Positions 1,479 through 60,576 are shown, counted from the stretch's first letter. The stretch: DNA of 64,000 nt from a virus (IMGVR_UViG_3300025099_000014:1-64000); one strand, 5' to 3'. Numbers and translations are program-made. Notes: a model not told the origin generated them from the sequence alone.

Positions 1479-3614
1479 ATGTGGCGTGATATTCTCAAGG
1501 ATGAAGGTAGGTCATTAGCCTCATATATAGATACTCCGGGTACTCGACTTAATCCAAGTATTTTTAATATTGATAATGTTGCTTACAGTGCAGGTGCGCG
1601 AGAATTATTCGGTGAAAGAAATGAGAAGTCACTCATAATAACTGAAGAAAAAGGAAATGAAATTGTTATAGCAATATACAAAGGAGAAATTCTTAGTGAA
1701 GTTGTTGATGATTGTAAAAATTTTCTAAAGGAATTTTTAGAAACAGAAATATTTAATAATCTAGAACAAGTCCAAAAAGGGCCTATTGATAAAATATTAG
1801 ATGATACTGTTAGACCTATAGTTGCTAGATTTGTTGGTAGAATGCTTGGTGTGTTTTTTGAAGATAGCACTCCAATAAGAGAGGGAGGGATTTTAGCGTC
1901 AGGAAAACTTAGAGTCAATAATGAAGTTACTGTAAATACAATTGTGTATGGTGATTATCTACAAGGTTTAAAGGACGCAGTACATGACAATGCGGGAACG
2001 ACAGTCACTTATCCGGGTTATATTGGCAATCCGAGTGCGGTTGATATAAAGAATAACCTAGGTGAGTTAGTCCATGATTCAGGGGCTCGAAGAACTGATT
2101 CATATAGATTTAGGGATAAATATGGCTCAAGCAATAGAGCATATCTTCGTCACTCTGATTGGCACTCCACTTTAAGTTTAACTAGTGACGAAGATTACGG
2201 CGGAGATGCCGGCTCAGGCGAGCCTCTGAAAATACCTAGGTCACAAAGGGTTACTAATGCAAACAATCAAACATATGTTAGAATTCAAAAAGATAATTTA
2301 AATAATATGAGTAATGAGAATCTATCTAATATGATTATAAAACACATGGACGCTACTCTTGGCAATCTAGGCCGCGACCATCGACCGAGTAAAGCAATGG
2401 ATGTAACACGTAAGTTTGTACAACAAATATTATCTGAAAAAAATATAGCAGAGCATTTAGGGGGCAACCCCGTATTAGCAAGAGAACTTTTTACTTATGG
2501 TGGGCAAATGCGAGATGTTCCGGGTAAGAATCCAGAAGATATTATGGAACGTCTTCCAGAATACACCAAGAGAAATTTACAAATCGAGCGAGAAAGTCCG
2601 GGTGTAGAAAACTATAAGGTATTACTTGGAGACCAAGAACTTTTAAGGACGTATTTTTCTCTTAGATTTGGAATTGACAGGAGTAAGCCCATAAAAATAA
2701 AAGGGATTAGACGTAGTAAACCAATTGCACAAGTTACACATGCAGGTCTCCGTCGCAAAGGACCCTTTACTAATACTTCTCTTATATATGGTGCTAGAAA
2801 CCCAGAAGGCAAAGAATATTTAGATGTAGCAAGATTTGGCTATACTCATACAAAAATTCATCAGCCAGTCGAGGCACTAAAGGAGATACTAGGGATGTTA
2901 ACCAATACTAAAGAAAAATCACCAAGGTATGATATGCCAGTAGATTTAGTTGCACACTCTAGTTTAGAAAGCACAATAGCACAAAGTAAAGAAGAGGATG
3001 GGGTATCATGGGAATATAGTAATATAAATGAAAGACATTTTGTAAAGATAGAACATTCAATACCCTACCCTTCAGATAGTTATCTCATAGAGTATTTTGA
3101 CCAGATTTTCGGAGGAACAAATGTTGACAGAGTGTATGATATGATACAAGACGCAATGGAAAATGATACAATGGCAGTATTAAAGTTTAAATTTTATGTT
3201 GATGCCACGGGTGGAAGAAGAGTAAAATATGACAGGGGTAGTTCGGAAATAGAGTATGAGGGTTTTCCCGATGATACACAAACCAATTATGCTGGCCAAG
3301 CACATTATTGTATATATGATAGGATTGATAGGACAATAGAAGAAGACAGGGCAGGTCAGGTTTGCATAATTAGTTATGCGGATAATTTAGGAGATTCTAT
3401 TGTGCAATTTTTAATGGGGCAAAAAAACATATTTCCCGTATTAAAAGGTAATTATAGAGATGGTTCCGTAAGTATTTCTAAGGACTACATCACAAGGGAA
3501 GACATAGAGCATATAGCGATGGTCCCAGACGATTTAAAAAGACCCTTAAAACAATTAGTTGATTTAATCATATGGCGTGGGAAAAGAAGCAGGTTAAAAG
3601 TAATCGAAGAGTAA
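1479..3614 (+). CDS. Large hypothetical protein with N-terminal W-tag
   Basis: 711-aa ORF starting MWRDILK. Confidence 0.85.
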   Translation: MWRDILKDEGRSLASYIDTPGTRLNPSIFNIDNVAYSAGARELFGERNEKSLIITEEKGNEIVIAIYKGEILSEVVDDCKNFLKEFLETEIFNNLEQVQKGPIDKILDDTVRPIVARFVGRMLGVFFEDSTPIREGGILASGKLRVNNEVTVNTIVYGDYLQGLKDAVHDNAGTTVTYPGYIGNPSAVDIKNNLGELVHDSGARRTDSYRFRDKYGSSNRAYLRHSDWHSTLSLTSDEDYGGDAGSGEPLKIPRSQRVTNANNQTYVRIQKDNLNNMSNENLSNMIIKHMDATLGNLGRDHRPSKAMDVTRKFVQQILSEKNIAEHLGGNPVLARELFTYGGQMRDVPGKNPEDIMERLPEYTKRNLQIERESPGVENYKVLLGDQELLRTYFSLRFGIDRSKPIKIKGIRRSKPIAQVTHAGLRRKGPFTNTSLIYGARNPEGKEYLDVARFGYTHTKIHQPVEALKEILGMLTNTKEKSPRYDMPVDLVAHSSLESTIAQSKEEDGVSWEYSNINERHFVKIEHSIPYPSDSYLIEYFDQIFGGTNVDRVYDMIQDAMENDTMAVLKFKFYVDATGGRRVKYDRGSSEIEYEGFPDDTQTNYAGQAHYCIYDRIDRTIEEDRAGQVCIISYADNLGDSIVQFLMGQKNIFPVLKGNYRDGSVSISKDYITREDIEHIAMVPDDLKRPLKQLVDLIIWRGKRSRLKVIEE

Positions 3615-3624
3615 GGTGAAAAAG

Positions 3625-4518
3625 ATGGAATGGGAAAATAAATTAATCAAAACACCATATAGAGAAATTACTCAAGAGCGGGTTGGTGAAATCACTAGAG
3701 AGTATATTAATGTTGAAGGTGAAACCTATGACAAAATATATTCCGGGGCAAAAAAAGGTGATACTCCTAGTACTTATTGGACTCATGACCCAACTATGGC
3801 TTTATGGTATGCAATAAAGGGTGACACAATAGCACCAACCAATAGGTCTGGTACTCCAATTATTTTTGAAGCAGATGTAACTGAAGAAATAATAGATGTT
3901 TACAAAGACCCAGAAACAGATGGTGGTTTAATTGATTTAGAGGACACTGTAAAAAATTACCGAGTAATTGAAGGTCCAGAGTTGGCGCAATTTATGGAAG
4001 ATAATTATGTTGATGGATATTATATGGGGCTTCATCCAGAAGAATACGATAGAACAATAGATGTATTGCGAACTGGTGACGAGAGGGCTATGGAGCATTT
4101 CTTTGGTCCTAGAATTACAGATGTTAGACAAAGCATGAGAACTAAAGATTATAAAAAGCGAGCAGCCGACCAATATTGGAGGGCTTTCGTCCGCAACGGT
4201 AAGTTAAAAACTAAGGATGAAGTAGAAAAATCTTGGGTGGAAACAATTAACAAAAAGGATAAAAAAGATATGCGAGTAGGTAGTGTATACCCTAGTGATA
4301 GAGAGGGTAAGAAAATTATGATGCTTACTCATGAAGGTAAGAAAATTCATGCTGGCGCTAAAGGTTATGGTAATTGGAAAGGAAAAGGTAAAAACAGAGG
4401 CGGTGGCACACATAAAAACCCAAAACGTCGAAAGAGTTTTAGAGCAAGACATAAATGTGACCAATGTAAAGGAAGAATTACAACTTCTAAATGTTTAGCC
4501 TGTAAAAAGTTGTGGTGA
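3625..4518 (+). CDS. Two-domain W-tag protein: possible ADP-ribosyltransferase-like domain plus basic Cys/His C-terminal domain (DUF5754-like)
   Basis: GGTGA at 3615 favours ATG 3625 (MEWENKLIK); YSG...YWTHDPTMALWYA...IFEA motif; internal KSWVETINK; C-terminus GKKIHAGAKGY...HKNPKRRKSFRARHKC...C..C..LW. Confidence 0.55.
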   Translation: MEWENKLIKTPYREITQERVGEITREYINVEGETYDKIYSGAKKGDTPSTYWTHDPTMALWYAIKGDTIAPTNRSGTPIIFEADVTEEIIDVYKDPETDGGLIDLEDTVKNYRVIEGPELAQFMEDNYVDGYYMGLHPEEYDRTIDVLRTGDERAMEHFFGPRITDVRQSMRTKDYKKRAADQYWRAFVRNGKLKTKDEVEKSWVETINKKDKKDMRVGSVYPSDREGKKIMMLTHEGKKIHAGAKGYGNWKGKGKNRGGGTHKNPKRRKSFRARHKCDQCKGRITTSKCLACKKLW

Positions 4519-4522
4519 TAAT

Positions 4523-4993
4523 TTGTGGGAAGATATTATTAAAGCGGAATTTCAGGTTAAGACAAATTTTCCTGATGCAGATATTTGGCTTCAAACTAGA
4601 GGTGAGGATAAAAACGTTGGCAAACCACTGAAGCAATTTTCTTCCGTTCAAGGCAAATACAATTACGGTATTAAACTTCCCGAAGGCTGGAATAAAGATT
4701 ATGTATTCAAGCAGTTGGCCGATTTATATAGAAACGGTCATTGGAAGATTCATTCTTATGGTACTTTAAATTTACAACATATTCGCAAGGACGATATTTT
4801 GCAGGTCTTAGATAAGTTGGAAAACAAAGAAGATTATACGGATGAAACTTCTGAAAAGTTTCAAGAAATATATGAAAACTGGCTTACATATTCAAAAGCA
4901 GTTGCTGAAATGTTAGAAGGTCATAGTTCAGAACTTGTACGCGAAGGTAGAGAAATAAAACGGTTTATAGAAAAACTAGAGGGTATGAGATAA
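4523..4993 (+). CDS. W-tag protein resembling a type I R-M specificity (HsdS TRD-like) fragment
   Basis: TTG start after GGTGA (MWEDIIK); ADIWLQTRG...VGKP...DYVF..L......W....GTLNLQHIRKDDI resembles the conserved end of HsdS TRDs. Confidence 0.5.
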   Translation: MWEDIIKAEFQVKTNFPDADIWLQTRGEDKNVGKPLKQFSSVQGKYNYGIKLPEGWNKDYVFKQLADLYRNGHWKIHSYGTLNLQHIRKDDILQVLDKLENKEDYTDETSEKFQEIYENWLTYSKAVAEMLEGHSSELVREGREIKRFIEKLEGMR

Positions 4994-5023: not shown

Positions 5024-5224
5024 ATGAATTGGTTCGATGTTATTAAATCGGATAAAATAATTGAAGATAAAATTATTGCAGAGTTCAAAAAAGAAGGAGG
5101 TGCTTTAGGTATGAAAAACCTTAAAGCAATTGCACCACCTAAAGAACTCAATAGAGTCCTAGATGCTATGAAGCGCAGAAAACTAATTTATGTGCATGAG
5201 CATGGCGATTTAATTATGAGGTGA
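5024..5224 (+). CDS. Small W-tag protein, winged-helix-like
   Basis: MNWFDVIK; helix-helix-helix then two beta strands (IIAEFKKEGGALGMKNL...ELNRVLDAMKRRKLIYVHEHGDLI). Confidence 0.65.
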   Translation: MNWFDVIKSDKIIEDKIIAEFKKEGGALGMKNLKAIAPPKELNRVLDAMKRRKLIYVHEHGDLIMR

Positions 5225-5228: not shown

Positions 5229-5810
5229 ATGTGGTGGGGTGTAATTAAATCAAAATGGATGGGCCAAATGTCCGACAGTAAAAAGGAGTTACTTGAACAC
5301 GAACCTAAAATTAAAATTGATATTCCTAAGATGTCTTACCCTGATGACCGTAAAGAAGTTAAAGAAGTAATAAAGGTAATGAAAGAAAAACCAGTGCCCG
5401 AAGATATTATGTCTAAACACGACAAAGATTCCGACCAAGTATTATTTGATATTGTAGATGCAAAAAGTTCTGATTATGAAGATTTTATAAAAGACGTTAA
5501 CTCGTACGTAATGCGAGAGAAAGTAAAATATGCAAGAAAAAGACCAAATGAAGTTTCTGATATTGTAGAAAGTAAAACAGAAACAGATGATACTCCGGCT
5601 TTTCCTTCGGGTCACGCAACTTTAGTTTATGCTTTAGAAAAAATGTTAGCCGACAAATACCCTAATAAAGCAGAACAATTAAATAATACCACTGAGATGT
5701 TAGCATTAGCAAGAGTTCAACTTGGTTCACACTATCCTTCGGATATTAAAGCAGGTAAACAATTGGGATATTTAATAGCAAAAAAATACTTGGGGGATAA
5801 AAACAAATGA
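5229..5810 (+). CDS. PAP2-superfamily phosphatase with W-tag
   Basis: MWWGVIK; all three PAP2 motifs: KVKYARKRP, PAFPSGHA, ARVQLGSHYPSD; GAGGTGA RBS. Confidence 0.9.
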   Translation: MWWGVIKSKWMGQMSDSKKELLEHEPKIKIDIPKMSYPDDRKEVKEVIKVMKEKPVPEDIMSKHDKDSDQVLFDIVDAKSSDYEDFIKDVNSYVMREKVKYARKRPNEVSDIVESKTETDDTPAFPSGHATLVYALEKMLADKYPNKAEQLNNTTEMLALARVQLGSHYPSDIKAGKQLGYLIAKKYLGDKNK

Positions 5811-6262
5811 AATGGGAACATATATTAAAAAATGTTGAACAAGACGGTAGAGAATTCATAAGTAATTACTTTGCAGAATTAATTAGTAGCATAGGTGGGG
5901 CAATAAACTCACTGCAGACCAACTTAGCAACCCTACTAGAAGCGAAGGCAAAGATGATAAAAGACCGCGATGCACAAGAATCCCTAACAAGAAGGGTGTT
6001 AGATTCAATGTATGAAAAAAGTATTCAAGAAATAGACGAAGTTATTGAGCAAACACAGAAACAACTAACTACGTTCCGGGGCATGGTTGTAGATATAAGA
6101 GGTAACGAGAGAATGATTGAAGGGCTACCAATAGGAGTGGCGTTAAAATCTCTTGAAGATTATTTTGAAGGAAAAGATACAACTGGCTTCCCTCCTTTAG
6201 ATAGGCAAAAATTAGCCGAACTATTACATAGAATAGGTTTTGAAGGGAAGGGTATGGAATGA
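5807..6262 (+). CDS. Coiled-coil W-tag protein
   Basis: MKWEHILK; heptad-rich; ATGA overlap with upstream gene. Confidence 0.8.
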   Translation: MKWEHILKNVEQDGREFISNYFAELISSIGGAINSLQTNLATLLEAKAKMIKDRDAQESLTRRVLDSMYEKSIQEIDEVIEQTQKQLTTFRGMVVDIRGNERMIEGLPIGVALKSLEDYFEGKDTTGFPPLDRQKLAELLHRIGFEGKGME

Positions 6263-7910: not shown

Positions 7911-8204
7911 ATGCCAATAAGAAAAGTTAAAGGTGGATATAAATGGGGTAAATCCGGTAAGGTTTATCCTACTCGTAAACAAGCAGAAAAACAAGCAGCC
8001 GCCGCTTACGCTTCTGGTTATAAAAAATCAGAAGAACAAGGAGAATGGTTTAATACCATTAAAGCAAAAAAGAAAACAAAAAAGGATGCTTGTTATCATA
8101 AAGTAAGAAGCAGATATGATGTTTGGCCTTCTGCTTATGCTTCTGGTGCTTTGGTTCAATGTCGTAAAGTTGGTGCAAAGAACTGGGGGAAGAAAAAGAA
8201 ATGA
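7911..8204 (+). CDS. Small basic two-domain viral protein (C-terminal part DUF5872-like) with internal W-tag
   Basis: Likely start MPIRKVKGGYKWG; internal KKSEEQGEWFNTIKA; KKDACYHKVRSRYDVWPSAYASGALVQCRK. Confidence 0.7.
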   Translation: MPIRKVKGGYKWGKSGKVYPTRKQAEKQAAAAYASGYKKSEEQGEWFNTIKAKKKTKKDACYHKVRSRYDVWPSAYASGALVQCRKVGAKNWGKKKK

Positions 8205-8485
8205 CTTGGGAACAAATACTAAAACGCAAACTAACTGCAAAACCTTCTTCTGAAACTTCTCTTAGAGATTGGTTTGGACGTAAAGGAGCCAAAGGTAGTA
8301 AAAGCGGTTGGGTAGATTGTAATACTTGCCGTAAAGATAAGAAAACTGGTCGTAAAAAATGTAAAGCATGTGGTCGCAGTAGTGGCGAAAAACGTGCAAA
8401 ATATCCTAAGTGTAGACCAACTCCAGCAGGATGTAGTAAAAAAGGTAATTACGGTAAAAAATCAAAGGTGGGCAGAAAAGGATGA
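8201..8485 (+). CDS. Basic Cys-rich W-tag protein (DUF5872-like)
   Basis: MTWEQILK; SLRDWF...GWVDC...CGR...YPKCRP. Confidence 0.7.
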   Translation: MTWEQILKRKLTAKPSSETSLRDWFGRKGAKGSKSGWVDCNTCRKDKKTGRKKCKACGRSSGEKRAKYPKCRPTPAGCSKKGNYGKKSKVGRKG

Positions 8486-8916
8486 AATTTAAATTATTAC
8501 CAGAAGACACCTTTCGTGGTATGGTAACTAATTTTACTTCAGCAATAGACAAAGGCTATCCTAATATTGTTTCCCCACTTACGTATTATGCTTATGTCGC
8601 AGAAGATTCTGTATTAGGTTATTCATCATTTTCAGACATGGGTGATTTTTACTTCGTAGGCAATACTTATATTCAGCCTGAAAATCGCGGTCAAGGAATA
8701 TACACTAAATTACTTTCTAATCGCAACGCACATCTTTCTGATAAACCTAAAATTACTTTAGTAAACCCAATAGAGGGCACAGATATTGCGGTGCTTTTTA
8801 GACAAGTTAATAAACAAGGTGGGATTAAGGTAGAATCATACAAGGACGTGGAAGATATTATGTGTCAAGATATGTATAATAAACTAAACACTCTTCCTTT
8901 GTTTATTTATAGGTGA
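8482..8916 (+). CDS. GNAT-family acetyltransferase
   Basis: Acetyl-CoA motif A: YIQPENRGQGIYTKLL. Confidence 0.8.
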   Translation: MKFKLLPEDTFRGMVTNFTSAIDKGYPNIVSPLTYYAYVAEDSVLGYSSFSDMGDFYFVGNTYIQPENRGQGIYTKLLSNRNAHLSDKPKITLVNPIEGTDIAVLFRQVNKQGGIKVESYKDVEDIMCQDMYNKLNTLPLFIYR

Positions 8917-8921
8917 TTATT

Positions 8922-9344
8922 ATGAGTTGGGAATATATTTTAAAGGATGAGACGTCCGGGCCAGTGTATCGTCCATTTACCACAAAACAATATATTGGCC
9001 TACTTGTATATGATTTTGTTGAGGAAAAGGAAACAGCATCACTTAAAGAAATTATAGATTTTTTGCAAGACCTAGCACGTAGACCGGATAGAGACATAGG
9101 CCCTAAAATGACGAAAGTGATAGCCGAAAGAAGAGGTATTTGGCCGGGTGGTTACGATTACTATTTTGGGAAGCATGGAGATAAATTACAAAGAAAAATT
9201 ACACAAAGCATAGGTAATAAAACTGACGCAGAGATGATGGCAATCGTAGGGGGAATGAAATTTCTAACTATGATTGATGATAATAAACTTAAAGTAGATG
9301 GAAATAGGCCAACACAAGAACGTATGGTAAATTGGGAATGGTGA
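8922..9344 (+). CDS. Hypothetical W-tag protein
   Basis: AGGTGA RBS at 8911 supports ATG 8922 (MSWEYILK). Confidence 0.8.
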   Translation: MSWEYILKDETSGPVYRPFTTKQYIGLLVYDFVEEKETASLKEIIDFLQDLARRPDRDIGPKMTKVIAERRGIWPGGYDYYFGKHGDKLQRKITQSIGNKTDAEMMAIVGGMKFLTMIDDNKLKVDGNRPTQERMVNWEW

Positions 9345-9349
9345 TTACT

Positions 9350-9673
9350 ATGTCTTGGTTTAATATTATTAAAAATAGATTCGAAGCAGGTTCTGCTACA
9401 CATGTAGCAATAGCGTGGGCAATTAATGATGATATTACTCGTAACGAGGTTAAGGAACTTATTACACATGAAGTGAGAGATAACCAATATTCTTCAATGG
9501 AAGATATTAGGCAGAAAATCGCAGGGCTTTTATCTAAAAATCTACCCCAACATAGAGGTTTTATGATGGAGTTAGTAGATGAACATAGGGCTGGCTTAAC
9601 AGATATTGATTGGGATGTAGTCGCTATGGAGTTCGATGAGTATATCAGAGAAGATATGGAAGCATACAGATAA
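9350..9673 (+). CDS. Hypothetical W-tag protein
   Basis: GGTGA at 9340 supports ATG 9350 (MSWFNIIK). Confidence 0.8.
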   Translation: MSWFNIIKNRFEAGSATHVAIAWAINDDITRNEVKELITHEVRDNQYSSMEDIRQKIAGLLSKNLPQHRGFMMELVDEHRAGLTDIDWDVVAMEFDEYIREDMEAYR

Positions 9674-9681
9674 TTTATATA
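9674..9681 (+). promoter_or_regulatory. Archaeal TATA box
   Basis: TTTATATA right after the stop codon and 30 nt before ATG 9704; context TAATTTATATA.AACATAAA nearly identical to 4991-5010. Confidence 0.75.
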
Positions 9682-9703
9682 TAACATAAAGGGATGTGCC
9701 ACT

Positions 9704-10489
9704 ATGCATTGGTTTAATATAATTAAAACGGCAGGCATTGAACGTAGAAGATTATTTAGGGGAATTAATATCCCTAAAGAGATAGGTGAAATGCGTCCGG
9801 CAAATGTTAGAATAAGACCAAATGTAATTCTTACGAGACACGCAATAGAAAGAATGCAAGGTAAAGACGTTAGTACAGAACCTACTATCGGTGCGAGAAC
9901 CGGAGAAACAGTATATAGAGATTTAGAAGGTGTGTGGTATTTTGATGGTGCTATGGATGCAATCCAAGAAGGCATAGAATCAGGCAGATTCAAGTCATTA
10001 CTTAGTGGAAAATTTGGCAAAAAAGGACAACTAATACTAAGGCTTAATAATGTAGGTCACGGAAGAATGGGGTGGCTCGTAAGAAAACACAATACTTTAG
10101 AAAATACATTATACGTTACTACTTATTTATCTTACGGGGGTCTACCAGAAGGGTCCGGGGCTAACACAGTACAATTAAACAAAGTTTCTACACCTTTACA
10201 CCCTATTAGTCCACCGCGTATGGATTCAGAACCGTGGGTTCATCCTAAAGACAGACAGAAAGAACAGGTGGAAAAACCTAAAGAACTATCTTGGCGAGAA
10301 AAGGCAGAGATAGAAATAGTTAAAATTAAGGGATTTCAGGAAAAGTTTCTCAATCAAATATTCAGGGACCCACCCCCTACTAATACTAAGGAATTAATTG
10401 AGACGGCAAAATCTCAATCAGGAACTACTAATAGAGGAAAGTTCATGCAGCAATTGGCGATGAACGCAGCATTGAAATGGGATTTTTAA
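9704..10489 (+). CDS. W-tag protein with HAxERM motif (possibly DUF4258/RelE-like fold)
   Basis: MHWFNIIK; VILTRHAIERM ... LYVTTY. Confidence 0.55.
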   Translation: MHWFNIIKTAGIERRRLFRGINIPKEIGEMRPANVRIRPNVILTRHAIERMQGKDVSTEPTIGARTGETVYRDLEGVWYFDGAMDAIQEGIESGRFKSLLSGKFGKKGQLILRLNNVGHGRMGWLVRKHNTLENTLYVTTYLSYGGLPEGSGANTVQLNKVSTPLHPISPPRMDSEPWVHPKDRQKEQVEKPKELSWREKAEIEIVKIKGFQEKFLNQIFRDPPPTNTKELIETAKSQSGTTNRGKFMQQLAMNAALKWDF

Positions 10490-10497
10490 TCAGTTAA

Positions 10498-10505
10498 TTT
10501 ATATA
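10498..10505 (+). promoter_or_regulatory. Archaeal TATA box
   Basis: TTTATATA 30 nt before ATG 10528. Confidence 0.7.
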
Positions 10506-10527
10506 TTACATAGGAGAATGACAACCC

Positions 10528-10713
10528 ATGCCGCGGACAGAATGGTTCAATAATTGGTTAGACGACAATTTCCCAGAAGAAAATGTAGAAGAAGTTTTTG
10601 AAAAGACCCTTGAGTATATTGAGGATAGCAAAGACGATACTAAAACATTACAAAAAATCAAGGCTTACATAATGCAGGCTTTTACTATGGCTAAGGAAGA
10701 TGAGGAAGAATGA
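10528..10713 (+). CDS. Small acidic hypothetical protein
   Basis: 61-aa ORF downstream of a TATA box, overlapping the next gene by ATGA. Confidence 0.7.
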   Translation: MPRTEWFNNWLDDNFPEENVEEVFEKTLEYIEDSKDDTKTLQKIKAYIMQAFTMAKEDEEE

Positions 10714-10964
10714 CTTGGGAAACCTATCTTAAATCTATTGATACAAAAGAAATCAATGATTGGTCGGAAGCACTCAAGGCTTTTATTAAGCAGGGTCGTG
10801 AACTAGGAATCCCGCTAGACGTTATGTCTGAATTAGAGAATGCCAATAAAGCAGCAGGAGCAACCACAACAAACGTCGGTGGTTTTACCCCTTCCATTCA
10901 CAACATTTTGTATGGTTCATGCTCTAAGTGTAAAGACCAAAAATCAAAATGTGGGTGTGAGTAA
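10710..10964 (+). CDS. Small W-tag protein with C-terminal Cys cluster
   Basis: MTWETYLK; ends CSKCKDQKSKCGCE. Confidence 0.75.
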   Translation: MTWETYLKSIDTKEINDWSEALKAFIKQGRELGIPLDVMSELENANKAAGATTTNVGGFTPSIHNILYGSCSKCKDQKSKCGCE

Positions 10965-12684: not shown

Positions 12685-12936
12685 ATGTGGGAAGACACAA
12701 TACAAAAAAAGAAAATGAACCCTATTGCTGCAAAAATGATAGATGAAATTCTATCTGATGGTAGGGCTTATTATGTTAAGGAAGTTTATGATATTTTATT
12801 AGATAGGTATCAAGAAAGAGGGATGAAAACCCACACCTTACCTTCGACAAATAAGGTAGGGTCATATTTACGAATAAACCATACGAGGGTTAACCAAATT
12901 GGTCGAACTGCAGTTAAATTTAAACAAAAGGAATAA
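12685..12936 (+). CDS. Small wHTH-like protein, W-tag variant
   Basis: MWEDTIQKK; IDEIL...V.D.L...P....VG.YL shared with the next gene. Confidence 0.7.
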   Translation: MWEDTIQKKKMNPIAAKMIDEILSDGRAYYVKEVYDILLDRYQERGMKTHTLPSTNKVGSYLRINHTRVNQIGRTAVKFKQKE

Positions 12937-12941: not shown

Positions 12942-13271
12942 ATGTCTTGGGTAAATATATTAAAAAAGGTAGGTAGAGAAAATAGAATATTACCCTTGTA
13001 TACTGGTTTAATTGATGAAATTATGCTAGAAGCAACAAGCCCACTAACCACAAGACAAGTGACTGATGCTTTACATGATAAATTTCAAGAAATAAAACAC
13101 AATAGGGTATACGAAAACCCTAGACATAAATCAAGAAGAACTCTATCTGGTAGATACTTTCCTGATATTAGACAAGTCGGTAAGTATTTATCTAAAAACT
13201 ATGTTAGGGGAGATATTGTTCGCTCACCGGGGTCAAGGTCTAAAGTAATAACTTGGGGTAAACGTAAATGA
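12942..13271 (+). CDS. Small wHTH-like W-tag protein, paralog of the upstream gene
   Basis: MSWVNILK; LIDEIM...V.DAL...FPDIRQVGKYL. Confidence 0.7.
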   Translation: MSWVNILKKVGRENRILPLYTGLIDEIMLEATSPLTTRQVTDALHDKFQEIKHNRVYENPRHKSRRTLSGRYFPDIRQVGKYLSKNYVRGDIVRSPGSRSKVITWGKRK

Positions 13272-13930
13272 CTAAAGTAACTCGTAAAACCTGCCCAGTA
13301 TGTAATCACGAAGAACGTGACATTATAGAACAGGGTGTTCTTGATGGAAGTATTGACCCCTCTACGTTAGACAAAGATAATGGTTGGTGGAACGGGACTA
13401 CCCGTAAGCACATGCAAAACCATACAGACAATTATGTTTCACATTCAAACGACAATTGTAAGTTATGCACACATCAGTCACGGGCTGATATTGAAGCAGG
13501 GCTTTCAGATGGTCGCACTAAGGTTAGCGAAATCGCGGAACAATTAGAAATGTCCGAAGACGCTGTACAATTACACTTGCGCAAGCATCTAAAACCTATG
13601 ATACAAAAAAGTGCAGCACTAGAACTAGCAAGAGTTGATTTTAACGAGATGGACGTTCTATCTAATAATATTGCTATACTACAAGACAAAGTAAATGATT
13701 TAGGTAACAACGATGATTTGGATTTTAGACAAATCGACTCACTTACTCGATTAGCAAAAGAAATTAGGGAATCCCTTAAATATATGTTAGAGTTTAAAGG
13801 ACAACTAGTACACAAGAGAGAAGAAACTATTGTGGTCCAGCAGGTTGAGGTTATTCAAAGAGTATTAATTGAAAAATACCCCGAAGTATGGACAGATATA
13901 CGAGATGCAGTTGCGGAGAAGATACAATGA
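13268..13930 (+). CDS. Double Zn-finger/HTH DNA-binding protein, candidate terminase small subunit
   Basis: Two CxxCxH...HxxxH units, the second containing an HTH (KVSEIAEQLEMSEDAVQLHLRKH); C-terminal helical oligomerisation-like region. Confidence 0.55.
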   Translation: MTKVTRKTCPVCNHEERDIIEQGVLDGSIDPSTLDKDNGWWNGTTRKHMQNHTDNYVSHSNDNCKLCTHQSRADIEAGLSDGRTKVSEIAEQLEMSEDAVQLHLRKHLKPMIQKSAALELARVDFNEMDVLSNNIAILQDKVNDLGNNDDLDFRQIDSLTRLAKEIRESLKYMLEFKGQLVHKREETIVVQQVEVIQRVLIEKYPEVWTDIRDAVAEKIQ

Positions 13931-26092: not shown

Positions 26093-26280
26093 TGAACTGG
26101 CAAGATATTCTTAAAACAGATTTTAAGAAATTAGATAATATAGCATTAAGAAATTTATATTATAGTTTAAAAGATACTGCTAGAACTGAAGAGGATAGAA
26201 AATTTCTTTTTCAAATAATTGAAGAAATGATACAAAGAGGTATGTGGAGAACTTCCAATTACAGAACAGGCAGAAAATAA
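26092..26280 (+). CDS. Small W-tag protein
   Basis: MNWQDILK; TAATG coupling to the portal gene. Confidence 0.75.
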   Translation: MNWQDILKTDFKKLDNIALRNLYYSLKDTARTEEDRKFLFQIIEEMIQRGMWRTSNYRTGRK

Positions 26281-51300: not shown

Positions 51301-54300
51301 GTCTTAGGTAGGATTGATTCAAATACTGCTAGAAAATCTATTACTAACGAACAACATATTTATCTAATTAACAAAGGGGGCTTGCCCTCCGGTGGGATAT
51401 TACACCTATTAAATTCAGAAGCAATAACTAATAACGATTCTGAAAATTACCCTATATCCTTTGTAGGAAAATTAAATGATGATAACCTAGGTTCACCTAA
51501 ACTATATGCAACATATAGTACTAGATTCGGTTCTTTTATGTGGAGGTATTCATACCTTGAAGATGGTAGTATATACTATCAGGATGAAATAGGTGATAGA
51601 ATAACTAATACTGCTAAGACATCTATACTTGGTATTACTGGTCTAGATTTATATAGAGATAAAAAAGGTAATATTAGAGCCTGTCTTACTGGTGTAAGAA
51701 TTGATGGTAATGGACAAACTATCGCTTTAGGTGATGATAACTCAGTTTCTGATACAAAATTACGGGAGGGTTCTCCTGAAACTAGGGGTCCAATGCCCGT
51801 ATTGGGTAGTAATTTCTATGATACAACTTTGATTCCTAGAAACTGTGATAACGCAAATCATAGTCAAGATTCTAGTAGTATTGCGAATAATGACCACGAT
51901 AATTACAGAGAAAAATACTGGGGTAGGTTATTGGCCCAAGACAGCGATGACGATAATATTTTCTATGTAGATAAGATGTTCTTTGAAGCAAATGACCCCA
52001 AAGCAATAAATACTTTTTTGTTTGCATTGGGTGATATTTATCCTGATAGTATGACTAGACCTAATCATATAGGTTACCCTGCAGCCTCACGGTCTTTTAC
52101 AGATTACTCTCTAATTTTTAAAGCCAGCGGTACTACGGTAGCAGGGATAGAGCATGATAAATATGTCGGACAATTAACATCTAAAAGACAAAATGATGCC
52201 TCTTATGATATTTTACCAGTCAACACAAGTTCTATTTCACCTAATACTATGAAAAGATTTGGAGTAGTTAGGTTGGTAGAGATGACTATGGATTGGCATT
52301 TTAATAATGTTGATGTAGAAAATAAAACTGATATAAATAATTATACTGCGATGCTAGATGTTCATAATAAAAAATTCCAATTGCATAATGAATTATTTAG
52401 TGCAAATGACCACCAAGTTAAATTTCATACTGCAGTATTAAATCTTGGAGCAGAATTAACTAATGGTGCTAGTAGTGTGACTTTAAATGCATCTCCAGCG
52501 GCTACAGGTGGAAGGTCTAGTTCAGGATTAACAAGTTTACCTACTAATTATATAAATACTAGCGCAACAGTTACTGCTGTATCTGGTAATGTAATAACAA
52601 TCAGTAATGGTGCTTACGGTAATGCTAGTCACTTTCACGAAGGTATGATTATTGCTAGAATTGGTAATACTGCTACGTCTGTAACTAACGAAGATAGACA
52701 ATATGCTATGATAGAGAGCGCAGCAGATAATAGTTCAAATGTAGAAATTACTCTTAAATCCGCAAGTAGTAGCGAAAATGGTCCTAACGTTCCTGAGTAT
52801 GAAAAGTTATTTGACCATGCTTTGATTAACCATTCACCTGCTGACCCAAGTGTTTCTGGTGGAGATATTATACAAATAGTACCTATTGAAATTTACGCTG
52901 ACCCTCTTACGGGTTCTTCTGCTACAAGTCCTAATAGAGTTTTTATAGGCACAGTTAGTGCCATAAGTGGGGCTACTATAACTTTAGGTTCTAACTATAG
53001 TGGTCCTACTATTGCTAATGGAACTGAAGTATATTTTAGCGTTGGGCCAGATTCAGTTCATCAAAGTGGGACACCTATAAATATTAAACATGATTTTAAT
53101 GTAAAAATACAAGAATTCAATTCACATATTATTAGTGGTAGCGTCCAGTTTCCTTGGTTTGTAACTAATAACAATGCTGGATATAACCACAATAAAGAAT
53201 TAATACATAATCAACTAATAAGTCCTTTATACTTAGGTAACACAAATACTAATGTTATTGCCTCGGACTATGGGCCTCTGGATGTAAATAAGGGATATTC
53301 CCCATTTAAATCTAGTATTCAAGGATTAATTAGAAGTAGTTCTAGAGTTATTAATGAAATGTTAGTACAAGATAGTTTTACGCAAACAAACACTAGTAAT
53401 ACTTCCCGTCTAACGGAAGTAGAAGTTTCTGGTGGTTCTAAGATTAGAAATAATATGATAGGTTTAATTACTAGAGGTTACAAACCGAATGCGTTTTTTG
53501 AAAATACGATGCTAAATGCTAAAAGGTCTAAAGATGTTATATTAGATTACCCATCAAATTCTTCAGATAACACAATGAATGTTAGAACTACAGGGGTTGG
53601 GTATGCTAGTGAATTTCAGGCTGGTGCTTATCTTAACACTAAAATAGGTGTTGATTCAGATGATTTAGAAAATATAGATAAATTTGAGGCCATATATTTT
53701 CACCCAAGAAATGATGAAGATGGTGGTGGTGCTTCCGACGAATTTATTAGATTGTTAAGTAATAAGTTTAGAAGTAGTTTTGCTAGTGTAATTGCAGATG
53801 CTGCGATTCTTGTAGATGATATGGCTAACGCACAATATGGTTCAGGTAGTGTTAACTTTACAGTGGGTGATGCTTTCTTATTAGGTATGCGGGCTGACTA
53901 TATTATAGCAACTACCGGTATGACTTTCCCAATTGTTAATTTAAGTTATCCTAAAGGTGATGGTGATAATTACTTTTATAGCACTTCTTACGGCCAAGCA
54001 TATTTAGGTTCTGCTCAAACTGCTCATAGTGGAACTTCTTCGGATAACCCATACGCTGCTTTGAAGTTTGACGAATTAAGTAGATACACAAATAGTAATA
54101 AATTACAGGACGAAGGTACAGGAGAGTTAAATTCATATTTAGGATTAACTAAGGCGGGTAACGGTATTGAAGAAAAATCATCAAGTCCGGTGCAAGACCA
54201 AAGATTCAATGAAACCTCAATTACCGGAGCAGAAGTATACTATAAACCGGTTGTAAATTTACAGGCTGATGATGTAGGTATTGGTGGAACAATAGATATT

Positions 54301-56115
54301 CATGCTCAGAAAAGACGAAGGATTACTTTTAGTATTTATAATACTCCAGACAGTAATCATATTACCGAACTAATTGAAAATAAAAGTTATGCAAATGACG
54401 GAGATGATAGACAATTACATAGATGGATTCATTTCTGTCCTGACCTTACGGGTTATTATTTAGTTAGTGAAGAAGGCAAAACGTTTGCTAATGCCTCTAC
54501 ATCCAATAGAGCAATTAATAATACTGTTCCCACATTTATACATAAAATTATATCTCATACTATAGAGAAACAATTATCTGAAACAAGTAACACAGAATAC
54601 TTTAAACACGTAATTGAAATAGATAATGCTAATACTTATAGCACAGGGTTTTATCGAGTTATGAGAATATCACAAGATACATTCTATGACTTTACCCCGT
54701 CAGAAATTAACCTGTTAACACTATCTAATTCTTATTCTAAAGTAACAGGTAGCGATAAATGTTATGGGCCTATTAATAGGTTTAACTATTATGATGCTGG
54801 GTTTGATGCCAGTGTAGATACTATGTATAATGAGGGTTTACTATCTATGTTTATGCCTATTAATATAGATGTAATTGACGGAGGCTTCGTAGATATTAGA
54901 AGTGCACAACATTTCGCTACTGCTACTAATTCACCTGAAACAGTTAATGGTGTAGCAAATGTTACAAAACCAAGATTTGTAGATAATACAACATATCAAA
55001 TGTCTATTACCGATGGGCACTCTAGATATAGTTCAGGGGTTAAAGTAGCAAGAGCGAACACCACCCCAGTTGTATATAGATTAGAAATGTCTAATATTAA
55101 AGCAATGGGTGGTGTAGTATCTTTTGGGGAGATTTTTACTTTGTCTACTTTTAATAAACCTAAATTTAATGGTAAGCGATGTTCCATAGGTACTAATTTC
55201 CAAGTAGTAGATGAGGCAGAACAAGTAATTAATGATTTAATAGAAAATACAGATATAACATATACTCAAACAACAGATACTGCAAAGTACTATGAAGCGT
55301 TTAATGTGCAAGGTTTAGACAGTTTTAGTGCTGTGAATTTTGTCGCATCTCTCAAAAATAGAAAATTAATAGTAGACGGTAAAACCGTTCAATTAGTTAA
55401 GGATATTGAAGATGAAGATTATACTAATATTGAATTTAATGAATTTGATGCAGACAATAGAATAGGACAAATATCTAGAGATAATAACTTATTTGATTTC
55501 TTTAATCAAATTACAGTGTATGGTGACGGTGTTAAGAGCACAGTAAGAGATTATAATTCTGTAAAGAAAGATGGGTTAAAAGAATTAGAAGAGGTTGACT
55601 TAACTATAGTCACAGAAGAAGCATGTAAAAGAAAGGCTATGAATCTATTACGAGTTCACTCGGAATCTAGTCCAGCAATATCTTTTAAGGTGTTATATGA
55701 ACAATGCCCATACTTAAGACCCGGACAAATAATTAATATTAATTACCCATCAGAAAAAATAGCAAGGGGTGAGTATATCGTATTGGAAATTAACTATGAA
55801 ATAGGAGGATTTATGGATGTTAAAGTAGGTAAATATGCTAAGAATCTAACAAACCGCATTGCAGAATTATTAGTACAGGGTAAAAGGGTAGATGCTGCTT
55901 TACGTGGTGACCGATATAAAACCACGACTCCTAGCAGTTTTATACAAGAAGAAGTTGCGCTTAGAGCAGTTAAACTTAAAGTACAGTATACTACTGCTAC
56001 AAGTACAGTAGCAAATGTATTTGGATTTACGACCATATTTGGTGTTGATACAACACTAGGAATAACGGTCCCAACAGGAGAGTCAACACAAAACTTGGAG
56101 TATGATTTACTATGA
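48352..56115 (+). CDS. Giant tail tip/baseplate hub protein
   Basis: 2587 aa, S/T/N-rich; hub-like segments IFDGTVEYI...YTISGRD and FNQITVYGDG...LRPGQIINI...YIVLEINY. Confidence 0.75.
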   Translation: MSLHAVDTGQSLPPLIDVVGDFDASANTFSRDSGGTITGLKQGMVITITNAVDGGNNTNYTLTADASTTLALGSVAADESNDTVTITPIIGHNTPTNPTLVEINSTALAGDINCFEIYKTRGAAPANTLNSVSSSTVNRLYPTNTTIDSHQSAKSTTPGYKIHSDVTLTNILSGSSLATANDYFVLIYSDNGNKHHFAKITEVLNYDNAGDGFEFEPRLKEDIPEGTKFAVYKGPSSTNTDLVAVSYGLTGTGDKHNHYVNVSRPTFYFYNDRIDNPIDNELAHNTKYEVRKSRYDGSSHVHSSTCFLTNQSFGPRLLDKSPYKQTVKIVDTAHTYDSTVSASTTTHYTNYAGSAQTYTANLTSWDTCFLNASRPVYTLSGGLASGSQSVATVYSGPSTHLSFVESPEITKILENVSSVKVSKTVTVSGNYAELEIYDFEKVLDEKIKMNDDFKVRSVLYQQKLNNNYDVNLPGKVHTNTTAGQLEFQELGDEQDLARLLGDGETIRIDDYIYVVASIASKSAGTQVVTIDAYKTKNAATFTTGTTIHDTLSGVKAFRRAWSTLKSNLLTNAKIDTEVAADGTITKNGITVTTSQVDYRDLNIVLDDGDLKSYRLSVDKGDKNNQYFELNDSAFNIYQYGNENRGTSTVTSNSVKYIAPIINYVGGGAFIDNVIFDGTVEYINSKTESTQMKYTISGRDDLGKLLAKVNNKKYLYSDEYVYSTMSPISQMTDTGLDLRVTSGSTLATQDAGSANISTSRRGSGTYVPLEIGDRIYYRYLSSPREQYILLGIVSANTATSDPGTGVTVTVSLETPLSEDIFRDVTTPKFSVTAPGAGTSPFSIANSTEAIVYVAKSTIMAGKSLSTNQTDTDTPTTLRGSADKGINFISGKKINVYTGQDSTSLVGSKSDTYVGLDNENSLGYTISNTVQIDSNMSPEGFVPFNSDGTENKLHTVSSMTEYDVIDIETLDDGLNNISVAPIMPTVLGRIDSNTARKSITNEQHIYLINKGGLPSGGILHLLNSEAITNNDSENYPISFVGKLNDDNLGSPKLYATYSTRFGSFMWRYSYLEDGSIYYQDEIGDRITNTAKTSILGITGLDLYRDKKGNIRACLTGVRIDGNGQTIALGDDNSVSDTKLREGSPETRGPMPVLGSNFYDTTLIPRNCDNANHSQDSSSIANNDHDNYREKYWGRLLAQDSDDDNIFYVDKMFFEANDPKAINTFLFALGDIYPDSMTRPNHIGYPAASRSFTDYSLIFKASGTTVAGIEHDKYVGQLTSKRQNDASYDILPVNTSSISPNTMKRFGVVRLVEMTMDWHFNNVDVENKTDINNYTAMLDVHNKKFQLHNELFSANDHQVKFHTAVLNLGAELTNGASSVTLNASPAATGGRSSSGLTSLPTNYINTSATVTAVSGNVITISNGAYGNASHFHEGMIIARIGNTATSVTNEDRQYAMIESAADNSSNVEITLKSASSSENGPNVPEYEKLFDHALINHSPADPSVSGGDIIQIVPIEIYADPLTGSSATSPNRVFIGTVSAISGATITLGSNYSGPTIANGTEVYFSVGPDSVHQSGTPINIKHDFNVKIQEFNSHIISGSVQFPWFVTNNNAGYNHNKELIHNQLISPLYLGNTNTNVIASDYGPLDVNKGYSPFKSSIQGLIRSSSRVINEMLVQDSFTQTNTSNTSRLTEVEVSGGSKIRNNMIGLITRGYKPNAFFENTMLNAKRSKDVILDYPSNSSDNTMNVRTTGVGYASEFQAGAYLNTKIGVDSDDLENIDKFEAIYFHPRNDEDGGGASDEFIRLLSNKFRSSFASVIADAAILVDDMANAQYGSGSVNFTVGDAFLLGMRADYIIATTGMTFPIVNLSYPKGDGDNYFYSTSYGQAYLGSAQTAHSGTSSDNPYAALKFDELSRYTNSNKLQDEGTGELNSYLGLTKAGNGIEEKSSSPVQDQRFNETSITGAEVYYKPVVNLQADDVGIGGTIDIHAQKRRRITFSIYNTPDSNHITELIENKSYANDGDDRQLHRWIHFCPDLTGYYLVSEEGKTFANASTSNRAINNTVPTFIHKIISHTIEKQLSETSNTEYFKHVIEIDNANTYSTGFYRVMRISQDTFYDFTPSEINLLTLSNSYSKVTGSDKCYGPINRFNYYDAGFDASVDTMYNEGLLSMFMPINIDVIDGGFVDIRSAQHFATATNSPETVNGVANVTKPRFVDNTTYQMSITDGHSRYSSGVKVARANTTPVVYRLEMSNIKAMGGVVSFGEIFTLSTFNKPKFNGKRCSIGTNFQVVDEAEQVINDLIENTDITYTQTTDTAKYYEAFNVQGLDSFSAVNFVASLKNRKLIVDGKTVQLVKDIEDEDYTNIEFNEFDADNRIGQISRDNNLFDFFNQITVYGDGVKSTVRDYNSVKKDGLKELEEVDLTIVTEEACKRKAMNLLRVHSESSPAISFKVLYEQCPYLRPGQIININYPSEKIARGEYIVLEINYEIGGFMDVKVGKYAKNLTNRIAELLVQGKRVDAALRGDRYKTTTPSSFIQEEVALRAVKLKVQYTTATSTVANVFGFTTIFGVDTTLGITVPTGESTQNLEYDLL

Positions 56116-59664: not shown

Positions 59665-59672
59665 TTTATATA
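59665..59672 (+). promoter_or_regulatory. Archaeal TATA box
   Basis: TTTATATA right after the stop codon and 31 nt before ATG 59696. Confidence 0.7.
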
Positions 59673-59695
59673 ACAGTAAGTGGATGGTTTAAGTA

Positions 59696-59905
59696 ATGTC
59701 GCTAGAAGATGCTCTAAACGGCGATTTAGATGAAAAGATTAATTGGTTAATTTCTAATCAAGTAAGTACAACTAAAGACATTGAAGCAATTAAAAACAAC
59801 CACCTTTCCCATATTGAAACTGATATGGCTGCGCTAAAACAACGTATATGGTGGATGACGGCATTTATTATTTCAGTAGTTACAGGGCAGAATGTGATGT
59901 TATGA
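59696..59905 (+). CDS. Small coiled-coil plus TM protein (XhlA/holin-like)
   Basis: IKNNHLSHIETDM coil followed by RIWWMTAFIISVVTG. Confidence 0.6.
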   Translation: MSLEDALNGDLDEKINWLISNQVSTTKDIEAIKNNHLSHIETDMAALKQRIWWMTAFIISVVTGQNVML

Positions 59906-60576
59906 GTTGGGAAAATACAATTAAGGCTCCACCACCTAGACCATCAGATAAAGATATACCAAAAAAAAGTAGGTATTTCGGTCCTAGATGGCTCAAGACG
60001 AAAACCGAGAGTGTTCGTGAAGCCGGATTCCACGCGGCAATTGATATATCCCCTATACATTCTAATTTTGACGCGTTTATAGTAAACGTTACCGATTTTT
60101 ATATTTTTGAGGATTTAAGTGCTCTTAACATAGAAGATATTAAAAGGCGATTAGAAGCAGATGTTGGAGAAGGTAAACTTACCATTGAGGGCGATGAGTT
60201 ATTGACCGAATCGGGCTATTTAGCATCAGAAGTGTATGAAGTTTATGACCAAATGTTAGACGACATATATGATGATTTTGAAGTTTGGGACGCATATGGT
60301 GGGTGGAAAATGTTTAACAAGAAATATCACACACCACATCCTGACTCTAATCGTAACCTCCATAAAATGAGACCTCGTTTTGGTGGTGATTTATATATAA
60401 TAGCACAAGAAGTTGAGGATTGGAAGCAAGATGCTCAAGAGTTAATGAATAGTAAATATCCCGCTATGAACGTTAGAATTAGAACTACAGTAACTAATTT
60501 ACTTAACGGTTTACAACAATTAAAACCAAAAACTATACAAGTTCTTAACCCGTCGAATATGTGGTATTGGAAATGA
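59902..60576 (+). CDS. Hypothetical W-tag protein
   Basis: ATGA overlap at 59902 gives MSWENTIKA. Confidence 0.8.
   Translation: MSWENTIKAPPPRPSDKDIPKKSRYFGPRWLKTKTESVREAGFHAAIDISPIHSNFDAFIVNVTDFYIFEDLSALNIEDIKRRLEADVGEGKLTIEGDELLTESGYLASEVYEVYDQMLDDIYDDFEVWDAYGGWKMFNKKYHTPHPDSNRNLHKMRPRFGGDLYIIAQEVEDWKQDAQELMNSKYPAMNVRIRTTVTNLLNGLQQLKPKTIQVLNPSNMWYWK

Follow-up and report, generated by a model that had tools for sequence, protein, structure and literature searches.

Why would two dozen proteins from a single virus share a short N-terminal peptide when they are otherwise unrelated? The question is raised by a 64-kb stretch of viral DNA (IMGVR_UViG_3300025099_000014:1-64000; "the window" means this whole stretch), which comes from a magrovirus, a kind of tailed virus that infects archaea. 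Magroviruses are among the most abundant viruses of ocean archaea; neither they nor their hosts have been cultured, and most of their genes have no known function. In the window, 24 of the roughly 63 genes on the plus strand encode proteins that start with M-(x)-W-x-x-[IV]-[IL]-K or a variant of it, and these proteins are soluble and otherwise unrelated. We will term this peptide the tag. An earlier note on this DNA had proposed that the tag sends an exchangeable set of proteins into the prohead, where they are clipped, and that they are later delivered to the archaeal host. It drew on the internal proteins of phage T4, whose leader (MKTYQEFIAE) is cut after Glu by gp21, and on the protease of phage HK97, which cuts after Lys. 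We find that the tag is real, is lineage-wide, and occurs far beyond chance. As to its function, we consider it somewhat probable, judging from the sequences and taking the whole chain of events together, that the tag is a portable address-and-cut label for the virus head, similar to the capsid targeting sequence (CTS) of T4. Delivery of the cargo to the host is less probable than that.

All 24 tagged N-termini in the earlier note are present, with the translations that it gave. Two of them start with TTG (4523) or GTG (29427), which are both read as Met at initiation, and most of the tagged starts have a GGTGAT- or GGAGG-like ribosome-binding site 5-10 nt upstream. A strict form of the pattern, W..[IVLTYMF][ILVM]K, has 29 matches in the six frames of the 64 kb, and 18 of these are at residue 2-3 of plus-strand open reading frames (ORFs). 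The other 11 comprise one in-frame match inside the gene at 7911-8204 (W codon at 8046) and 10 matches in non-coding frames. (There is also a 45-aa ORF at 8116-8253 (+), in frame 0, which starts with the tag-like M-L-L-V-L-W-F-N-V-V-K. It overlaps the genes at 7911-8204 and 8201-8485 in another frame, and its likeness to the tag is probably due to chance.) Similarity among the tagged proteins does end at the Lys, as had been claimed: when 16 of the 24 N-termini are aligned, M1, W3, and K8 are the sole invariant positions, and identity averages 21% per column. The bodies are unrelated. BLASTP among the tagged proteins of the window gave no pair with E < 1e-5 (the sole match within the window was between two untagged structural proteins), and we reject paralogy of the tagged proteins because of this lack of similarity.

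The tag extends well beyond the window. We compared the window to four related viral records (G001-G004, 91-94 kb each), whose major capsid proteins (MCPs) are 56-79% identical to that of the window. ORFs in these five genomes were identified with a simple purpose-made ORF picker, which missed the tagged gene at 14341, mis-set some starts (G004_16717, G004_19196), and included spurious short ORFs, so the counts from the five genomes are approximate and are lower bounds for tags. The strict tag is present on 80 of 570 predicted proteins: 80 of 331 on the structural strand versus 0 of 239 on the replication strand (Fisher test, P = 2e-21). Trp is at residue 3 in 60 of the 80 tags, at residue 2 in 19, and at residue 6 in one. 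A related codon pattern has 10, 7, 13, and 10 coding-strand matches in the four relatives, and the reversed control has none. For a narrow codon pattern, there are 102 matches in 596 Gb of prokaryote genomes versus 8 in the 0.437 Mb of the five virus sequences, so it is around 10^5-fold rarer per base in prokaryotes. Among the 80 of those 102 matches that were listed, the taxa are scattered and unrelated, with no Poseidoniales, and no contig appears twice. The narrow pattern is thus not enriched in prokaryote genomes, and the tag is a viral device and not a host one. Mimicry of the N-terminus of a host protein is rejected on the same grounds.

A second group of magroviruses, represented by contigs of 90-100 kb, has a longer variant of the tag, A-F-D-x-A-W-x-L-L-K, which matched 79 viral stretches, many of them with 2-4 copies. 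In the main-text portions of the magrovirus literature that were searched by term, we found no description of an N-terminal motif or tag, and a full-text search for six tag hexapeptides returned occurrences of which none concerned archaeal viruses. Excerpts of the literature on magroviruses and proteomics do not suggest a virion proteome.

What are the tagged proteins? They are mostly small (median of 130 aa in the five genomes; 52-711 aa in the window), and half of them are basic (median pI of 8.1, versus 5.5 and 6.2 in two untagged groups). Only 1 of 80 has a transmembrane-like segment, versus 67 of 490 untagged proteins (P = 3e-4). They turn over quickly, as the four relatives lack a homologue for 16 of 23 tagged proteins of the window. 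Also, 22 of the 24 have no family match that is above the curated threshold or has a usable name. PHROGs gave no named family for the ten largest tagged proteins, the ESM Atlas gave no usable match for those of 633 and 685 aa, and homologue searches for these two found close relatives only (5 for that of 633 aa and 10 for that of 685 aa). Among the labels that the earlier note had put on these bodies, only phosphatase was borne out. Cys-rich stretches that look Zn-binding are visible in the products of 8201 and 14341; for HsdS-like, winged helix-turn-helix (wHTH), and coiled coil, Pfam and PHROGs gave no match at E ≤ 0.01. A Sec, Tat, or class III signal peptide was considered and rejected: the tag has 7-8 residues and is followed by polar or basic residues, with no hydrophobic core.

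The phosphatase is a 193-aa protein (5229-5810; tag MWWGVIK, 5229-5249) that matches PAP2 (PF01569, E = 1e-8, above the cut-off) and has no transmembrane segment. It is the only tagged protein with a confident function. The signature of the PAP2 or class A acid phosphatases is KX6RP - PSGH - RX5HX3D, and these catalytic motifs are kept: K98, R105, P106, P126, G128, H129, R162, H168, and D172 are invariant in 53 sequences. The structural model (pLDDT of 94) is all-helical, and its best matches in PDB are the soluble acid phosphatases 7f17/7f18 and PhoN (TM scores of 0.63-0.67). On sequence and model, then, it is apparently an active, soluble, class-A-acid-phosphatase-like enzyme. The model places the tag in a separate N-terminal helix (residues 2-11) with lower confidence (pLDDT of 69). 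Within the phosphatase fold of the database relatives P0017, P0019, and P0020 there is a tag-like D-W-x-x-F-I-K-D (Y-E-D-F-I-K-D in the window protein), so motif scans for the tag pick up false matches. A domain related to the tagged phosphatase is also at the start of some database proteins of 1,300-2,000 aa (P0035, P0039, P0044, P0046, and P0106), and these may be giant proteins of the polyvalent type that is discussed below.

The tagged genes lie among the genes for building the virion. From 1479 to 60832, every gene is on the plus strand, with no intergenic gap above 78 nt. Pfam identifies the large terminase TerL (21663), the portal (24467), and the tail tube protein (41640) on this strand, and an ERCC4 nuclease and a PolB-exonuclease-like protein on the minus strand. 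The MCP (33218-34516, +; 432 aa) has the HK97 fold and is similar to the MCPs of haloarchaeal tailed viruses (about 26% identity, E down to 7e-24) and, at 54-98% identity, to capsid genes on 69 IMG/VR viral contigs, several of which are 87-96 kb. Eighteen of the 24 tagged genes are among the 28 genes that are directly upstream of TerL, three are between the portal and the protease, two are ahead of the tail genes, and one is past the fibres. It had been noted that some proteins are never tagged, and indeed, in the window the tag is absent from TerL, the portal, the protease, the MCP, the tail tube, and the four or five replication or repair genes of the minus strand.

Both halves of the tag recur in proteins that build the head. 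First, the gene at 31962-33212 (+) encodes a 416-aa protein with a prohead serine protease domain (PF04586, Peptidase_S78, HK97 type; residues 27-177, 49.5 bits versus a cut-off of 21, E = 7e-13) and an acidic, coiled, scaffold-like C-terminal half. We will call it the protease-scaffold; it is a candidate for the clipping enzyme, and the MCP gene starts 6 nt downstream. The first half of the tag, as the pattern [ML][STDNG]W.[EDN][ILV], has 35 N-terminal occurrences in the five genomes. Elsewhere in proteins it occurs 12 times, versus 2.4 ± 1.5 expected by shuffling, and 8 of these 12 are in just two kinds of protein: four are in the C-terminal tails of the protease-scaffolds and four are in the C-terminal tails of a head protein of 75-80 aa. 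In both, the motif is about 15 residues from the C-terminus. In the window, the tail of the protease-scaffold is LSWEEVNALARELQE (33165-33209), and its form E-[LM]-S-W-[ED]-E-[VI]-N-x-L is conserved in 43 distinct relatives. The small head protein is conserved, has 77 aa in the window (28573-28806, +), and has the tail KMDWTEL (28756-28773). Scaffolds and HK97-type proteases are held inside proheads by terminal tails.

Second, two hydrophobic residues followed by Lys (h-h-K), as in the end of the tag, recur where a prohead protease might cut. The MCP begins with a conserved IRTIxDLERATYG, then a linker that varies in length and sequence, and then [LIM][LIM]-K. The Lys (K27 of L25-L26-K27, 33290-33298) is invariant in 33 sequences and is followed by A, G, or S; it is a candidate for the maturation cut. 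In the second magrovirus group, D-L-L-K-A is at the same place near the start of the MCP, and the protease has [DE]-F-[IL]-L-K-[AS]. Near the N-terminus of the window's protease is SELVILK (residues 16-22, 32007-32027). Here the h-h-K is present in 38 of 38 distinct relatives, and residues 19-23 read [VAI]-[IV]-L-K-[GSA], with h-h-K-[AGST] in 37 of 38; this stretch may equally be the first strand of the fold. The 77-aa head protein also has conserved h-h-K sites (MLLK at 28597-28608 and ILMKSG at 28663-28680). An AlphaFold2 model of the MCP from 33 sequences was unusable (mean pLDDT of 35.8), and a complex prediction for the MCP (alignment of 33) with the 62-aa protein encoded at 26092 (alignment of 16 tagged N-termini), run without controls, scored 0.00, which speaks neither for nor against binding.

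The tag is also portable. Homologues of the 685-aa tagged protein that differ in their N-terminal 75-190 residues still start with MDW[ED]NVFK. Among the best 150 database relatives of the phosphatase, nine have an N-terminal tag, three have one inside the protein, where the phosphatase joins another module, one has a copy 12 residues from the C-terminus, and nearly all of the distant ones are without a tag. Certain small modules (one basic and of 45 aa, one basic and Cys-rich, the phosphatase, and two more) recur across the five genomes, sometimes as separate tagged ORFs and sometimes fused, with the tag at the joint. The gene at 7911-8204 (+; 97 aa) is such a fusion, with the internal tag EWFNTIK (8043-8063) at its two-module joint, and its modules are separate or are differently joined in G001-G003. 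Although the relatives have ORFs of 2-4 modules with joint tags, this is the only fused gene in the window. Most of the modules have no recognised domain. The internal and near-C-terminal positions argue against mechanisms that require the very N-terminus.

How would an address-and-cut label work? The tagged genes are packed tightly with the morphogenesis genes, and because of this gene order we infer that their products would be made together. The first half of the tag, [ML]-[ST]-W-x-[ED]-[ILV], would form a short helix that docks inside the assembling procapsid. As the motif is shared, the docking site would be the one at which the protease-scaffold and the 77-aa head protein also dock their C-terminal tails, and the cargo would be trapped. 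The S78 protease would then cut after h-h-K, as it may do at Lys27 of the MCP, which is suggested by the recurrence of the motif. The cut would free the cargo from the shell and would split the fused, beads-on-a-string forms into modules. Finally, and speculatively, the cargo would stay with the DNA and might enter the host as a fast-evolving set of take-over or counter-defence proteins. A more ambitious statement of the same idea is plausible but we hold it tentatively: the virion would carry an arsenal of dozens of interchangeable effector modules, single or as beads on a string, under a two-part capsid address whose Trp half docks where the scaffold tails dock and whose h-h-K half is cut by the head protease, and would deliver them with its DNA. 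Space does not seem to be an obstacle. The 24 tagged proteins at one copy each amount to 5,201 residues (roughly 0.6 MDa), and by our own estimate they would take up far less than 1% of the volume that about 90 kb of DNA occupies when packed.

The cargo proposal of the earlier note is partly supported, by indirect evidence: the tag is a portable peptide module on unrelated, soluble, often basic, and fast-changing proteins, whose genes share a strand with those of the head and tail and are contiguous with them, and the halves of the tag recur in head proteins. The parallel to T4 holds for the mechanism only, as the protease is of the HK97 type (Pfam S78) and not of the gp21 type.

Several observations weigh against loading and cutting. 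As a set of cargo, 24 species per genome would be an unusually large number, far above the handful in T4, and one tagged protein, of 52 aa, has a hydrophobic segment. The protease-scaffold tail matches only the first half of the tag, and the "h-h-K-M" upstream of it is not kept in every group. In the second magrovirus group, the scaffold tail (G-W-x-A-x-E-x-L) has only a loose resemblance to that group's tag, so covariation of tag and tail is not demonstrated. The h-h-K near the N-terminus of the protease overlaps the Pfam S78_2 match (which begins at residue 20) and may be conserved for the fold rather than as a cut site. If the protease cuts at h-h-K, then such sites might be avoided in the cargo; [IL][IL]K occurs 19 times in the tagged bodies versus 29.5 expected (z = −2.0), with no depletion in the other two gene groups or of three control tripeptides, but as one of several tests this is weak evidence for cutting. 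Some internal tags are degenerate and have lost the h-h-K half (for example, W-E-D-Q-L-S-K), so some may be relics of gene fusion and not working sites. Three of the four relatives have untagged homologues of the 685-aa post-portal protein, and among the 12 families that have several members and at least one tag, 5 are mixed, which is partly due to fusions and mis-set starts. Finally, HVTV-1, which is the closest cultured virus by MCP, has no comparable tag in its head module.

The alternative that survives best, although we regard it as unlikely, is that the tag docks to a partner other than the capsid, whether viral or host, such as a chaperonin, a replication or assembly factory, or a host complex. 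A short amphipathic helix that is common to unrelated proteins is the typical look of a hub-binding motif. The diversity and fast change of the bodies and the existence of untagged orthologues would fit as well, and no partner in the head has been identified. However, when the first half of the tag is found away from N-termini, it is specifically in the C-terminal tails of two proteins for head assembly (8 of 12 occurrences), and all of the tagged genes are on the morphogenesis strand, with none among the 239 ORFs of the replication strand. Also, in none of the prokaryote genomes is the narrow pattern enriched, so the tag is not in use by any host protein family.

A second possibility, which is a little less likely still, is that the tag is only a cut or junction signal, so that a viral or host protease processes polyprotein-like products in the cytoplasm and nothing is packaged. 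This would account for h-h-K at the likely maturation sites and for the tags at the joints of fused modules. But there is no evident point in trimming eight residues from an N-terminus unless the peptide acts first, and a simple cut site has no use for the conserved Trp half, which moreover matches the scaffold tails. Proteases of the HK97 S78 type work inside the prohead, according to passages of the work on HK97 (PMC12749128).

Third, the peptide could act on translation or stability, as a nascent peptide, as a protected or degradable N-terminus, or through co-translational recognition. Trp at residue 2 or 3 in 79 of 80 tags and first codons that mildly favour A or T endings are consistent with such an effect. 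We think it improbable because residue 2 is not constant (S, T, N, K, G, H, D, or none), so that the mature N-termini would be chemically different, and because some copies of the tag are at internal joints, close to a C-terminus, or 8-15 residues into the protein. Also, the tag-like motif is in C-terminal tails, and other proteins from the same operon do without the tag.

Fourth, the tag could be an amphipathic helix that brings proteins to the cell membrane. Indeed, WKDILK, which is one form of the tag, is present in frog dermaseptins, and these are amphipathic membrane-active peptides. However, the variable positions of the tag are mostly acidic (E in 35 of 80 and D in 31 of 80), which leaves the peptide about neutral, unlike cationic membrane-targeting helices. 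As it is only eight residues long, has nothing amphipathic conserved past it, and resembles scaffold tails, targeting to the membrane is very improbable.

The last alternative is a signal in the nucleic acid, and here the codons are informative. In the 80 tags, Ile is encoded by ATT 32 times, ATA 31 times, and ATC once; Leu by TTA (29), CTA (15), CTT (10), CTC (5), TTG (3), and CTG (1); and Lys by AAA (59) and AAG (21), versus 61 and 19 expected. The claim that the codons vary synonymously is thus confirmed, both in the window alone and in the five genomes, with codon use of the ordinary kind, and conservation is not stronger for the DNA than for the peptide. Since the codons vary, selection acts on the peptide, and we reject a DNA-level signal. 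It is hardly credible that the tag is a recombination boundary or a translation-initiation element with the peptide as its by-product, for although modules are shuffled at tag positions and the Leu codons depart somewhat from the background (P = 0.001), synonymous codons are used freely (both Leu families, and ATT and ATA equally), I/V/L swaps are tolerated while Trp and Lys are fixed, and no nucleotide block is conserved beyond what the peptide dictates. As a separate observation, CTA and CTC are more common for Leu in the tag than in gene bodies (20 of 63 versus about 9 expected, P = 0.001), and Lys at the first variable position of the tag is encoded by AAA in 17 of 17 cases; these biases may be a codon effect of the start region.

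We now describe the individual tagged genes, all of which are on the plus strand (coordinates are those of the tag unless noted). The block upstream of TerL opens with a 711-aa protein (1479-3614; MWRDILK, 1479-1499) that has no Pfam or PHROG family, and a 297-aa protein (3625-4518) with the variant tag MEWENKLIK (3625-3651), whose homologues in G001-G004 have the canonical tag. These are followed by proteins of 156 aa (MWEDIIK, from the TTG start, 4523-4543) and 66 aa (MNWFDVIK, 5024-5047), the phosphatase, and a 151-aa protein (MKWEHILK, 5807-5830). Past the fused gene at 7911-8204 there are a basic Cys-rich protein of 94 aa (MTWEQILK, 8201-8224) and proteins of 140 aa (MSWEYILK, 8922-8945), 107 aa (MSWFNIIK, 9350-9373), 261 aa (MHWFNIIK, 9704-9727), and 84 aa (MTWETYLK, 10710-10733). 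In the family of this last protein, 7 of 7 members are tagged. Next come proteins of 83 aa (variant MWEDTIQK, 12685-12708), 109 aa (MSWVNILK, 12942-12965), and 131 aa (variant MSWENIIRK, 13927-13953), a Cys-rich protein of 67 aa (MTWYEVIK, 14341-14364), and the 52-aa protein that is the sole tagged protein with a hydrophobic, transmembrane-like segment (MSWFDIVK, 14943-14966). A 633-aa protein has the variant MVSEWEEVIIR (15318-15350), and the genes at the same position in G002 and G003 have canonical tags. The block ends immediately upstream of TerL with a 446-aa protein whose variant tag, MFFDIIK (20304-20324), has Phe in place of Trp.

In the head module, the tagged genes encode a 62-aa protein immediately past the portal gene (MNWQDILK, 26092-26115), the 685-aa protein (MGWENIVK, 26523-26546), and a 139-aa protein (MDWKIILK, from the GTG start, 29427-29450). 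A 242-aa protein (MWYDIIK, 40043-40063) has head-completion genes upstream and tail genes downstream, and a 68-aa protein has a variant tag without Trp (MFDKILK, 40771-40791). The last tagged protein, of 224 aa, is past the tail-fibre region (MSWENTIK, 59902-59925).

Some untagged genes of this strand also deserve mention. Within the tagged block, 13268-13930 encodes a conserved protein of 220 aa that has an N-terminal CxxC and weakly matches a helix-turn-helix, and 15104-15307 encodes a 67-aa protein with weak matches to archaeal wHTH families (DUF2250, TrmB); both may be regulators. There are two weak matches to GNAT acetyltransferases in the block, one at 19732-20301 (E = 5e-4, just above the cut-off), whose counterparts in G002 and G003 are likewise just upstream of TerL, and one at 8482-8916 (E = 1e-3, below the cut-off). 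At the end of the block, 17219-19741 encodes an 840-aa protein that has no Pfam or PHROG family but is present in 4 of 4 relatives (846-866 aa), so it is a core gene that adjoins the putative cargo array. The head module includes a 699-aa ATP-dependent DNA ligase (29830-31929; PF01068, E = 1e-27), with small head proteins upstream and the prohead protease downstream, which is an unusual location for a replication or repair enzyme. Between TerL and the portal, 23074-24465 encodes a 463-aa protein whose C-terminal part matches the PHROG of HNH endonucleases (E = 4e-7). In the tail region, 48352-56115 is a single ORF of 2,587 aa, with ORFs of 2,252-2,588 aa at the same place in the relatives. An untagged 572-aa protein of the window, used as a query for related loci, found no relative, and megablast of 20 kb of the window against GenBank phages gave no match.

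HVTV-1 offers some further parallels. HNH genes adjoin its terminase too. There are weak look-alikes of the motifs in KLMK-S near the start of its MCP and KSWEQE near the end of its protease. Its head module also has a 1,313-aa gene (8623-12564) that is annotated as "zeta toxin" and is flanked by the protease and a gene annotated "head assembly"; the product is a candidate for a packaged polyvalent protein in a virus that can be grown.

If the tag does address proteins to the head, then archaeal viruses would gain their first example of a code that addresses protein cargo, and magroviruses would devote up to a third of their structural-strand genes to a virion-borne arsenal. Virion cargo could be read directly from metagenomes, which would give a location (the virus head) and a role (pre-made and delivered) to hundreds of dark genes in ocean metagenomes, and such a readable label would flag the genes that are most involved in the arms race between virus and host. 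HK97-type procapsids assemble from cloned capsid and protease genes in E. coli, as described in parts of PMC12749128, so a test of the idea need not await a cultured host. If it holds, a tag of eight residues for the loading and release of proteins in an HK97-fold shell would also be a compact tool for protein packaging.

How does the proposed label compare to known systems? Short peptides on unrelated cargo enzymes are also used by encapsulins, where they bind the inner face of an HK97-fold shell. These cargo-loading peptides are usually C-terminal and are not cleaved, and the shells are cellular nanocompartments without DNA. In HK97 itself, the C-terminal part of the protease is its capsid-targeting signal, which would parallel the tag-like C-terminal tail of the protease-scaffold. 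About 60 copies of the HK97 protease are co-assembled in Prohead 1, and it removes the scaffold part of the capsid protein, according to sections of PMC12749128. In contrast, the protease here is fused to a long acidic scaffold-like half, and there are around 27 MCP residues before the candidate cut, instead of the 102-residue delta domain of HK97.

Giant phages such as SPN3US package many head-internal proteins with their DNA, and several of these are cut by the prohead protease (PMC7411985, PMC10052503). They differ in having 240-kb genomes and very large capsids, and the sections of those two papers that we consulted report no single short N-terminal motif that is shared by the cargo. The Dar proteins of phage P1 are anti-restriction proteins that are incorporated during head morphogenesis, and an N-terminal stretch of DarB (more than 9 and at most 30 residues) suffices to load a reporter into the capsid, which is comparable to the role that we propose for the tag. 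The P1 signal is not common to many unrelated proteins and loading is stepwise, via DarA and Hdf, whereas here one eight-residue motif is on dozens of proteins (PMC9024508).

The polyvalent proteins of phages and conjugative elements combine 2-15 effector domains in one polypeptide and are encoded beside virion genes; packaging and injection are predicted for them, and proteolysis splits some of them into domains (Iyer et al. 2017, PMC5512222). The fused tag-module-tag-module forms in the relatives look like small versions of these. The polyvalent proteins are single giant polypeptides with peptidase domains of their own, whereas the tagged genes are mostly small and separate, and the putative cutter is the head protease.

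The closest comparison is to T4. Its CTS loads diverse, fast-evolving internal proteins into the scaffolding core, can do the same for GFP and other foreign proteins, and serves counter-defence proteins that are delivered with the DNA, as recounted in parts of PMC3012670. There, as here, a short N-terminal peptide is the sole element that is common to a diverse and fast-evolving set of proteins. The differences are that the two peptides have no sequence relationship, that the magrovirus tag ends in Lys and goes with an HK97-type S78 protease instead of gp21, that there are 24 tagged genes in 60 kb versus the handful in T4, that tags are also at module joints, and that the host is an archaeon and the system is known from its genes alone. 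Given the type of protease and the lack of a sequence relationship, the tag system would be an analogue of the T4 system and not a member of it.

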